A stretch of 64,000 bases of DNA, taken from the sequence record ON528745. One strand, 5' to 3'. The translations under genes and the position numbers were made by a program. Below the pieces are notes generated by a model. That model was not told the origin of the DNA. It was given only the letters and a program-made list of their open reading frames with translations, and searched no databases. Below, piece by piece: positions 3,655-5,508 of the stretch. Each line of letters opens with the position of its first letter. Positions within the stretch are counted from its first letter, which is position 1. Source of the stretch: Shigella phage ESH35.

Positions 3655-4235
3655 TGATTAAATTGGTATTCGCTTATTCTCCAACTAAAACAGTCGAAGG
3701 CTTTAATGAATTAGCATTCGGTTTAGGTGATGGTTTACCATGGGGACGAGTTAAAAAGGACCTCCAGAATTTTAAAGCTCGTACCGAAGGTACAATTATG
3801 ATTATGGGTGCTAAAACGTTCCAGTCATTATCTGCATTACTTCCTGGTCGTAGTCATATTGTGGTGTGTGACCTTACGCGTGATTATCCTGCAACTAAAG
3901 ACGGCGATTTAGCACATTTCTATATTACATGGGAACAGTACATAACTTACATTTCTGGTGGCGAAATTCAAGTGTCAAGCCCTAATGCACCATTCGAGAC
4001 TATGCTTGATCAGAATTCCAAAGTAAGTGTAATTGGAGGACCCGCTCTACTATATGCTGCATTACCTTATGCGGATGAAGTAGTTGTTTCACGCATCGTT
4101 AAAAGGCATCGTGTTAATTCAACGGTTCAGTTAGATGTAAGTTTTCTTGATGATATAAGCAAGCGTGAAATGGTTGAAACGCATTGGTATAAAATAGATG
4201 AAGTAACAACCCTTACGGAATCAGTATATAAATGA
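3654..4235 (+). CDS. frd: Dihydrofolate reductase
   Basis: 193-aa product [12 protein letters not shown]...[11 protein letters not shown]...; DHFR fold motifs; same length and position as T4 frd. Confidence 0.9.
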
Positions 4236-4254
4236 AATAACGCGCGGCGGAAAT

Positions 4255-4602
4255 ATGAATTTTAATTATTACCCTATTCTATTAGAAAAAGATGAGAAAC
4301 AGCCAAAGTGGCAGGGTCCTCAGTTTATTAAAGGTGTCTATCAATTAGTAGTTCCTAAAGACAAGATTTATAGCAGTTGTTTCACTGAATCCGCTTGTAG
4401 TATTTTCGGTAATAGTTCTCCGTATTGGAATTTTGACATAAAGCTGGATAGAAATATCGATATTTGGTTGAAAGCTATGGATATTGGTAATATCACGTTT
4501 GATGAGAATAATTATCATATTATTGGTCGCTTTTCCAAACGCGGTAAAGAATTATATTTCACGCCTGAAATTGAGAGAAAATTTGATGCTAAACCGTATT
4601 GA
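4255..4602 (+). CDS. Hypothetical protein (115 aa) in an insertion between frd and td
   Basis: ORF with upstream GGCGGAAAT-ATG; no family recognised; lies inside a 416-bp segment flanked by duplicated TAAATGAAA. Confidence 0.55.
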   Translation: MNFNYYPILLEKDEKQPKWQGPQFIKGVYQLVVPKDKIYSSCFTESACSIFGNSSPYWNFDIKLDRNIDIWLKAMDIGNITFDENNYHIIGRFSKRGKELYFTPEIERKFDAKPY

Positions 4603-4647
4603 TTATTTAGCTTCATAAAATGTATTATAATTTATATAAGGTACTAA

Positions 4648-5508
4648 ATGAAACAATACCAAGATTTAATTAAAGACATTTTTGAAAATGGCTATGAAAC
4701 CGATGACCGAACGGGCACAGGAACAATTGCTTTGTTCGGTACTAAATTGCGTTGGGATTTAACCAAAGGTTTTCCTGCAGTAACAACTAAAAAGCTCGCC
4801 TGGAATGCATGCATTGCTGAGCTAATATGGTTTTTATCAGGAAGCACAAATGTCAATGATTTGCGATTAATTCAACATGATTCATTAATTCAAGGCAAAA
4901 CAGTCTGGGATGAAAATTACGAAAATCAAGCAAAAGATTTAGGATACCATAGCGGTGAACTTGGTCCAATTTATGGAAAACAGTGGCGTGATTTTGGCGG
5001 TGTAGATCAAATTATAGAAGTTATTGATCGTATTAAAAAACTGCCAAATGATAGGCGTCAAATTGTTTCTGCGTGGAATCCAGCTGAACTTAAATATATG
5101 GCATTACCGCCTTGTCATATGTTCTATCAGTTTAATGTGCGTAATGGATACCTTGACCTTCAGTGGTATCAACGTTCGGTAGATGTTTTCCTCGGTCTTC
5201 CATTTAATATTGCATCATATGCTACGTTAGTTCATATTGTAGCTAAGATGTGTAATCTTATTCCGGGAGATTTGATATTTTCTGGTGGTAATACTCATAT
5301 CTATATGAATCACGTAGAACAATGTAAAGAAATTTTATGTCGTGAACCTATGGATTTATGCGAATTACAATTAAAATTTCCAGATGAATTTGATGAATGG
5401 GACACAGAATCGCAGGTATTTTGGTTGAGTCAATTTGCAAAGCCTCATAATTTTGTTCTTAACAACTATGAATCACATCCTCCTATTAAAGGAAAGATGG
5501 CGGTGTAA
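4648..5508 (+). CDS. td: Thymidylate synthase, uninterrupted (no group I intron)
   Basis: 286-aa continuous [29 protein letters not shown]...[11 protein letters not shown]...PIKGKMAV; TS active-site Cys motif present. Confidence 0.95.

Follow-up and report, generated by a model that had tools for sequence, protein, structure and literature searches.

Which state of the frd-td junction is the derived one? In phage T4, the gene for thymidylate synthase (td) starts within the stop codon of the gene for dihydrofolate reductase (frd), whereas in the stretch studied here, 64,000 nucleotides (nt) of Shigella phage ESH35 (ON528745; hereafter the window), a segment with an open reading frame (ORF) of 115 amino acids (aa) separates both genes. 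The initial annotation of the window regarded this segment as an acquired cassette that had displaced td. We found that the ORF is td.1, a common gene of T4 relatives that had been annotated before, and consider it probable that td.1 is the native occupant of the interval, while the T4 state arose by deletion. From position 4100 to 4800 the window shows 100% identity to Escherichia phage wV7 and O157 typing phage 7 (Tequatrovirus), and its sequence is called wV7 in all comparisons. The small genes of the frd-td slot are labeled X (td.1 family), Y (a td.1 paralogue) and Z (a 68-aa gene).

The junction in the window comprises the following features.

3654 to 4235, plus strand: frd, dihydrofolate reductase of 193 aa, ending VYK-TGA (ORF; Pfam DHFR_1, E = 3.6e-19; 97% identity to T4-type Frd)
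4229 to 4237, plus strand: left copy of the 9-nt boundary motif TAAATGAAA, covering the 3' end of frd with its stop and 2 nt beyond (kept in the td.1-carrying L011-L014 and in PHB12)
4232 to 4240, plus strand: mini-ORF ATG AAA TAA (ATGAAATAA), the 'stub', over the frd stop; its ATG (4232-4234) is made by AAA (Lys) plus TGA
4236 to 4254, plus strand: frd/td.1 spacer of 19 nt, holding the G+C-rich run ACGCGCGGCGG and a Shine-Dalgarno-like GGCGGA (4246-4251)
4255 to 4602, plus strand: td.1 (115 aa), PHROG_1928 family, a predicted small beta-rich protein (ORF; PHROG_1928, E = 3.1e-36; AlphaFold2 (AF2) model with a predicted local distance difference test score (pLDDT) of 79.7)
4603 to 4647, plus strand: td.1/td spacer of 45 nt, with the MotA-box-like TTAGCTTCA (4607-4615), the -10-like TATAAT (4626-4631) and a Shine-Dalgarno-like AAGG (4638-4641)
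4645 to 4653, plus strand: right copy of TAAATGAAA, formed by 3 nt upstream and the first two td codons (direct reading of the sequence)
4648 to 5508, plus strand: td, thymidylate synthase of 286 aa, here intron-free (ORF; Pfam Thymidylat_synt, E = 3.9e-94, full length)

The frd gene ends with ...GTA TAT AAA TGA (stop 4233-4235), and the overlap of this stop with an ATG, the stub and the repeated 9-mer at the td start, all pointed out in the initial annotation, can be read directly in the window. The T4 arrangement on which it had relied was confirmed as well: in NC_000866, on the complement strand, td starts at 145112 and frd ends at 145109, giving a 4-nt ATGA overlap, and T4T shows the same. 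The T4T junction (TATATAAATGAAACAATACC) equals the window sequence minus one repeat copy and minus the intervening DNA, exactly. The difference from T4 is a clean indel of 416 base pairs (bp), the distance between both TAAATGAAA copies in the window, and it is bounded by the 9-nt repeat. Counted from the frd stop, td.1 starts after 19 nt and td after 412 nt; the ATGA start/stop coupling of td is absent from the window, where AAGG, 6 nt before the ATG, replaces it as an upstream signal of td's own.

What does the segment encode? It had been described as belonging to no recognizable family, and Pfam, NCBIfam and PADLOC searches of the 115-aa protein indeed gave no match. However, the database and profile search proposed along with that description revealed a known family: residues 4-111 align with positions 2-125 of the 126 positions of PHROG_1928 (E = 3.1e-36), and the same gene is named td.1 in T2H (AY262132.2) and RB32ORF229c in RB51. 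The segment is present in about 354 of 536 phage records that match the junction region (record counts, here and below, contain GenBank/RefSeq duplicates and laboratory strains). From the comparison with T4, T2, T6 and RB phages, likewise proposed at the outset, the T4 overlap emerged as real, but T2, T6, RB5, RB10, RB32, RB51 and RB68 all carry the segment. A second allele, found in about 147 records, holds Z, which is unrelated to td.1 and has an ATGA joint with frd and a TAATG joint with td. The T4-type overlap accounts for 35 records, about half of them T4 itself, and 31 of the 35 are at least 99% identical over 100 bp. Homologues of td.1 were found solely at the frd-td slot and on the same strand, namely in the window, seven annotated genomes, 22 IMG/VR loci and two metagenomic contigs. 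The segment is an already annotated, common gene, an ordinary finding that will not surprise a T4 specialist; mildly new are three points, namely that the slot has three alleles, that X, Y and Z form a module and that the empty allele is associated with the td intron.

The occupied slot extends well beyond Tequatrovirus. Homologues of td.1 with 25-66% identity reside in the frd-td interval of at least eight other Tevenvirinae genera, often together with a tandem paralogue and the 68-aa gene. By tblastn, 219 additional records with homologues under 60% identity were detected, and in every such record that was opened the homologue is placed between frd and td: KPV15 (Jiaodavirus), Q7622 (Kanagawavirus), Cronus (Roskildevirus), Moon (Moonvirus), CBH8 (Winklervirus) and PHB12 (Mosigvirus). 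Identity is 25-47% for the homologues in the first five of these genera and in one Mosigvirus isolate. The second small gene of several genera, Y, is a paralogue that shares the invariant residues of td.1 and contains about 20 additional aa (a PTIEEYKKDP-like insertion). According to the alignment, Q16, W19, G27, G91, F93, K95 and G97 are invariant in X and Y, and td.1 of the window possesses the X-family invariants Q16, W19, G27, Y29 and G91-x-F93-x-K95-x-G97. Among 39 IMG/VR loci collected by a Frd anchor, the architectures frd-X-td, frd-Z-td, frd-X-Y-td, frd-Y-Z-td, frd-X-Y-Z-td and the direct overlap occur. A gene of the X, Y or Z type is present at least once in all loci with a Frd 36-54% identical to that of wV7 (18/18, RB49-like loci excluded). 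The full frd-X-Y-Z-td module with overlapping genes is present in L050 (3405-5739), L026 and L041, and in L050 the frd/X, Y/Z and Z/td joints read ATGA; other genera retain X-Y, Y-Z, X alone or Y alone. In the RB49-like loci (L037-L039), an unrelated ORF of about 80 aa (...KFFEDVRRGDQIKISHKVGKHPYKS...) occupies the slot; between it and td lie a promoter-like TATATAAT and a strong Shine-Dalgarno sequence.

The closest td.1 relative outside the T-even group, 63% identical, lies on a 32-kb metagenomic contig in the arrangement frd-X-Y-Z-td, with ATGA overlaps at frd/X, Y/Z and Z/td and a 17-nt overlap at X/Y. Compared to wV7, this contig shows 63% identity for gp32, 63% for X, 48% for Frd, 78% for Td, 77% for NrdA and 28-44% for the small genes upstream of frd. 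The divergence of X thus falls within the range of its neighbors, and X therefore diverged in step with its neighborhood. A horizontal transfer of X from an L050-like lineage was considered by a three-taxon comparison of X and Frd and was dismissed, as the result is compatible with mere rate variation. The idea that the X cassette is more conserved than its flanks was dismissed as well: this was a protein-level impression caused by the hypervariable central part of frd, and the immediate flanks are equally conserved. Between wV7 and L014, PHB12 or JoYop, this central part (3834-4073) is 60-78% identical, while both frd ends reach 92-100%; this is why phages that are close in other respects show a low identity of their Frd proteins.

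Is td.1 a recent arrival at this locus? Synonymous (dS) and non-synonymous (dN) divergence were calculated by the Nei-Gojobori method with Jukes-Cantor correction, on sequences that are short. Measured against the wV7 allele, dS of td.1 amounts to:

T2H: 0.29
L014: 0.34
JoYop: 0.32
PHB12, whole gene: 0.67
PHB12, codons 41-115: about 1.2

For the first 540 nt of td, these genomes give dS values of the same order, and dN/dS of td.1 is 0.01-0.07 in 6 of 7 T-even pairs, the nearly identical L013 pair giving 0.22. Since low dN/dS is combined with deep dS, td.1 is a real gene under strong purifying selection, and judged by these sequences it has been at the locus for at least as long as Tequatrovirus diversified, and apparently for longer. 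Signs of mobility were searched for in the segment as well. No terminal inverted repeats pair both ends of the 416 bp, which contain weak internal pairs alone, and the G+C content (0.30-0.34) is similar to that of the surroundings. The only ORF gave no Pfam, NCBIfam or PADLOC match to a mobility enzyme such as a transposase or integrase. Near-identical td.1 copies were not encountered at other loci or in unrelated genomes; the alleles are diverged, with dS of 0.3-1.2. Taken together, the proposal of an acquired cassette is opposed by its status as majority Tequatrovirus allele, by homologues in the same slot of many Tevenvirinae genera, by td-like deep dS, purifying selection and neighbor-matched divergence, and by the lack of a mobility gene, terminal inverted repeats or compositional anomaly. 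Under every reading discussed below, the 416-bp event is not an acquisition in the wV7 lineage. Signs of decay exist at the slot too: in L011 (3940-3960) and L014 a 2-nt deletion at the td.1 stop turns the C-terminus ...KPY* into ...KPLII* (asterisks denote stops), and Z of L015 (893-1100) is split into two frame pieces and appears pseudogene-like.

If the segment is not an acquisition, what do the 9-nt repeat and the stub mean? The TAAATGAAA 9-mer occurs 9 times in the 64-kb window compared to 3.2 expected occurrences, an enrichment of about 3-fold. At 13280 it forms an intact ATGA-coupled junction and at 16603 a TAA-ATG junction. Given this frequency and its use at other junctions, the 9-mer is a generic stop/start boundary motif of T4-type phages. 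Of the 9 repeated bases, just 5 are unconstrained by coding (the AA that follows the frd stop and the TAA that precedes the td start), and five further direct repeats of 9-20 nt exist within the same 701 bp. As a direct repeat flanking the segment it could be a target-site duplication, but also simply a pair of such generic motifs. The repeat marks the end-points of the indel relative to T4 but is by itself silent on which allele is derived. The ATG at 4232, formerly interpreted as vestigial td start, exists because Frd ends with Lys (AAA) and TGA; beyond the 9-mer the stub (TAACGC) and td (CAATAC) agree in 3 of 6 bases, which is chance level, and the mismatches are all transitions. The stub is absent from JoYop, whose frd reads through.

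Most T4 relatives carry a conserved td.1, so the overlapping junction of T4 most likely lost it. Frequency, synteny and the deep alleles of td.1 argue that the polarity is most probably the reverse of that proposed in the initial annotation. The T4-type allele, for its part, looks derived: it is rare and uniform, corresponds exactly to a short-repeat deletion, occurs on the flanking haplotypes of the td.1 alleles and is linked to the td intron. That td.1 is the native frd-td occupant and T4 the deletion state is in our view the probable course of events, and the T4-type allele would arise, by the simplest route, through a deletion between the two TAAATGAAA copies.

Several observations weigh against this reading. 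The overlap is the usual state in three other T-even genera (130 Mosigvirus-type, 33 Gaprivervirus and 24 Dhakavirus records) and is also present in very distant GC-rich relatives. Since it is common in other T-even genera, the empty state could be old in the T-even group. No T-even genome with both X and Z was found, and gain at the slot is demonstrated for Z. The T4-type junction shares flanking haplotypes with td.1 alleles; as the flank haplotypes are common to all three Tequatrovirus alleles and shuffled among them, no polarity can be deduced from them. The duplicates among the records and the shortness of the sequences belong here as well.

These points would fit an ancient gain, in which the ancestral T-even junction was the ATGA overlap and a td.1 fragment from the frd-td interval of another T4-like lineage inserted at or before the origin of Tequatrovirus, duplicating TAAATGAAA and leaving ATG AAA TAA as a dead td start. 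The normal overlap in Mosigvirus, Dhakavirus and Gaprivervirus and its presence in distant relatives, the transition-only mismatches between stub and td, the separate occurrence of X and Z and the introgression of the Z cassette into exactly this slot speak in its favor. However, with dS values of up to about 1.2 the td.1 alleles are as deep as td, which places any gain before the genus diversified. The nearest outside homologue (66% identity) shows a divergence like that of its neighboring genes, and neither mobility machinery nor terminal inverted repeats nor a compositional signal accompany the segment. In addition, the duplicated 9-mer is a generic motif, about 3-fold enriched in the window, while the additional matches past it do not exceed chance. 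An empty allele ancestral in Tequatrovirus should furthermore occur there without intron too, whereas all Tequatrovirus empty junctions that were checked are tied to the td intron. Consequently, we regard an ancient gain as unlikely.

The link to the intron deserves closer consideration. All 10 distinct T4-type phages inspected (T4, HY03, SG1, G28, FL18, ECO07P1, FN, RB59, G2133 and F1) contain the td intron, compared to about 90 of the 354 td.1-type records; wV7 has none. In the phages inspected, the gene-less allele thus goes along with the td intron, which suggests that it hitch-hikes with intron homing. In T4T, HY03, SG1, G28, FL18, ECO07P1 and FN (L002, L053-L058), the td group I intron with I-TevI sits 552 bp downstream of the empty junction. 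Homing by I-TevI preferentially co-converts exon I (PMC2988022), and co-conversion in T4 extends up to about 2 kb (PMC2790892); the slot is located inside this exon-I co-conversion zone.

How the empty allele came into Tequatrovirus might then be explained differently. If td.1 was ancestral, the empty junction could have been imported by gene conversion from, e.g., a Mosigvirus-like phage, through recombination or td-intron homing, and the foreign flanks were eroded later. Exchange of this kind does occur: FL18 is a Mosigvirus with T4-type junction, Tequatrovirus-like flanks and td intron, which indicates genuine inter-genus exchange, and in ECO07P1 the junction connects a Tequatrovirus frd with a td of Dhakavirus-like type. 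The position of the slot, 552 bp upstream of the intron site and within reach of exon-I co-conversion (PMC2988022, PMC2790892), and the erosion of flanks up to the edge of the non-homologous segment that is seen for Z would agree with an import too. However, 50 nt on either side of the T4 junction are wholly Tequatrovirus-like without any foreign tract, and more steps are needed than for a single deletion at a short repeat. An import therefore appears quite improbable. In ECO07P1 itself (L057, junction 748-751), the 3' end of frd is of Tequatrovirus type (96-98% identical), while td is 95% identical to L020 and 73% to wV7; the recombinant is joined at or very near the ATGA.

The allele with Z provides the clearest case of exchange at the slot. 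Only 3 of 207 nt of Z differ between SHFML-26 (Tequatrovirus) and JS98 (Dhakavirus), while the frd flank of both phages is about 80% identical up to the ATGA and the high-identity tract stops 58 nt into td. In contrast to X, Z is genuinely more conserved than its flanks, and on sequence grounds it is to be regarded as a recent exchange between genera. One might speculate further that the whole frd-td interval is a modular slot in which X, Y and Z are gained, lost and swapped between genera precisely at the overlapping ATGA joints, while the empty T4 allele was spread by co-conversion of exon I during I-TevI homing, so that a selfish intron erases td.1. We offer this broader scenario only tentatively, as a possibility with the odds against it.

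Could td.1 itself be the selfish element? One reading takes the ORF as a degenerate, free-standing homing endonuclease gene, which would explain its own patchy presence beside td. The gene is labeled 'putative homing endonuclease' in MZ501046 (L052:456-803) and related BASEL records, and its KGVYQLVVPKDKIYSS superficially resembles the GIY...YIG motif of I-TevI. However, no GIY-YIG or HNH Pfam match was found at E values up to 1, the comparison of the family profile with I-TevI gave an hhalign probability of 0.3% over 9 columns and a BLASTP E value of 2.9, and the YIG half of the motif is variable across the family. Strong purifying selection and deep dS in place are furthermore unlike a decaying selfish gene. 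We thus consider this reading highly implausible, and the label of td.1 in the BASEL genomes was rejected, as neither sequence nor structure supports it.

An AF2 model based on a 26-sequence alignment (pLDDT 79.7; predicted template modeling score 0.75) comprises seven strands and one helix, and the td.1 protein is predicted to be a small beta-rich domain. A BFVD structure search returned only uncharacterized proteins of T4-like phages, including Aeromonas phages, and no significant structural match to a known fold; profile matches against sequences of the Protein Data Bank were at chance level (E >= 0.1). In an exhaustive profile search of 1.84 billion representative proteins, the family was found to have 52 representatives, almost all of 95-148 aa, and three long proteins with weak repeated family matches contained no informative domains. 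Our best guess is that td.1 acts as a binding or accessory protein of the early nucleotide-metabolism cluster.

How are td.1 and td expressed if the coupling is lacking? The GGCGGA before td.1 (4246-4251) and the AAGG before td (4638-4641) suggest that both genes could initiate independently, and with such Shine-Dalgarno-like sequences of their own, td of wV7 would not be translationally coupled to frd. At the optimal distance upstream of T4 td, a comparable Shine-Dalgarno sequence is missing, the nearest GGAA being about 14 nt away, and T4 td presumably relies on the ATGA overlap. The td.1/td spacer of 45 nt is identical in four wV7-type loci (L011-L014), whereas it measures 13-15 nt in JoYop and PHB12. 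The extra 30 nt or so hold TTAGCTTCA, with TATAAT 10 nt or TAATTT 12 nt downstream of it. In T4 middle promoters, a MotA box (TGCTTtA-like) precedes a TAnnnT -10 element by about 12 nt. The combination of TTAGCTTCA and TATAAT resembles such a MotA-dependent middle promoter, although the resulting td leader would be merely 8-10 nt long. The pattern GCTTYA-N10-13-TANNNT occurs 20 times in the window compared to 9 occurrences expected from shuffled sequences; plus-strand examples elsewhere are found at 15676, 34838 and 47852, consistent with scattered real middle promoters. A scan for sigma-70 promoters and terminators yielded background level, RNA folding in the spacers was no better than for shuffled sequences (z = +1.1 and -1.3), and Rfam gave no match near threshold in the spacers.

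The short spacer between frd and td.1 might preserve a trace of an older junction. Translated in the frd frame it reads K*NNARRKYEF*, which parallels the Frd tails KNEIATGGKYEF of JoYop and GEKREF of L051, a metagenomic relative; in other genera Frd extends to the td.1 start, and it may have done so here in the past. In JoYop (L004:152-769) no stop follows VYK, and Frd is extended by 12 residues (NEIATGGKYEF), overlapping the td.1 start. Past the TGA, the frd frame is open in the wV7 spacer too, and two small indels separate the wV7 and JoYop versions (window 4233-4265). Its G+C-rich run ACGCGCGGCGG (4240-4250) lies within otherwise A+T-rich spacer sequence, and the same run with one change is present in other td.1 phages.

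What follows from these results? First, the textbook frd/td overlap of T4 is the rarer allele, devoid of the gene, at a locus where a conserved td.1 is the normal state, which is a matter of correcting annotation: td.1 merits a family name instead of 'hypothetical protein' or 'putative homing endonuclease'. Second, a phage-specific protein family, made up of td.1 and its relatives, is subject to strong purifying selection inside the gene cluster for deoxynucleoside triphosphate synthesis; with neither a known fold relative nor a known function, this family would be a sensible subject of functional studies. Third, with its empty allele linked to the td intron, the locus offers an inexpensive test case for the reshaping of a neighborhood by a homing element. 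If the modular slot and its reshaping by homing held true, a selfish intron would actively erase the conserved and selected neighbor td.1 from recipient genomes.

Compared to known systems, td.1 of T2H is the nearest counterpart: it is the same gene at the same frd-td position, the protein of the window is 99% identical to that of T2, and nothing substantive differs, the window copy being one allele. The T4 junction, reportedly described by Purohit and Mathews in 1984 as the classic case of overlapping genes, has the same flanking genes and near-identical flanks and corresponds to wV7 minus 416 bp. However, T4 is devoid of td.1 and its td starts inside the frd stop, while td of wV7 starts 412 nt downstream with its own Shine-Dalgarno-like sequence. 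Deletions in T4 rII have their end-points at short direct repeats of a few to about 10 bp. Here too, the end-points fall in a perfect 9-nt repeat and the shorter allele keeps one copy; unlike the rII deletions, the event is deduced from the alleles, and the repeat doubles as a functional boundary motif and is thus no proof of mechanism. With td-intron homing the locus shares its geometry, as the slot lies 552 bp into the exon-I side, and among the phages of Tequatrovirus background that were checked the empty allele always comes with the intron. Unlike the td intron, td.1 is not a homing element, and homing might erase it. Finally, T4-related genomes are known to have variable small-ORF slots, 'hyperplastic' regions, between conserved genes (PMC2993671), and the frd-td interval likewise encloses lineage-specific small ORFs of unknown function between a conserved gene pair. 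In contrast to such slots, its occupants X, Y and Z are not orphans but represent conserved families, whose order is fixed and whose stop/start coupling recurs from genus to genus.

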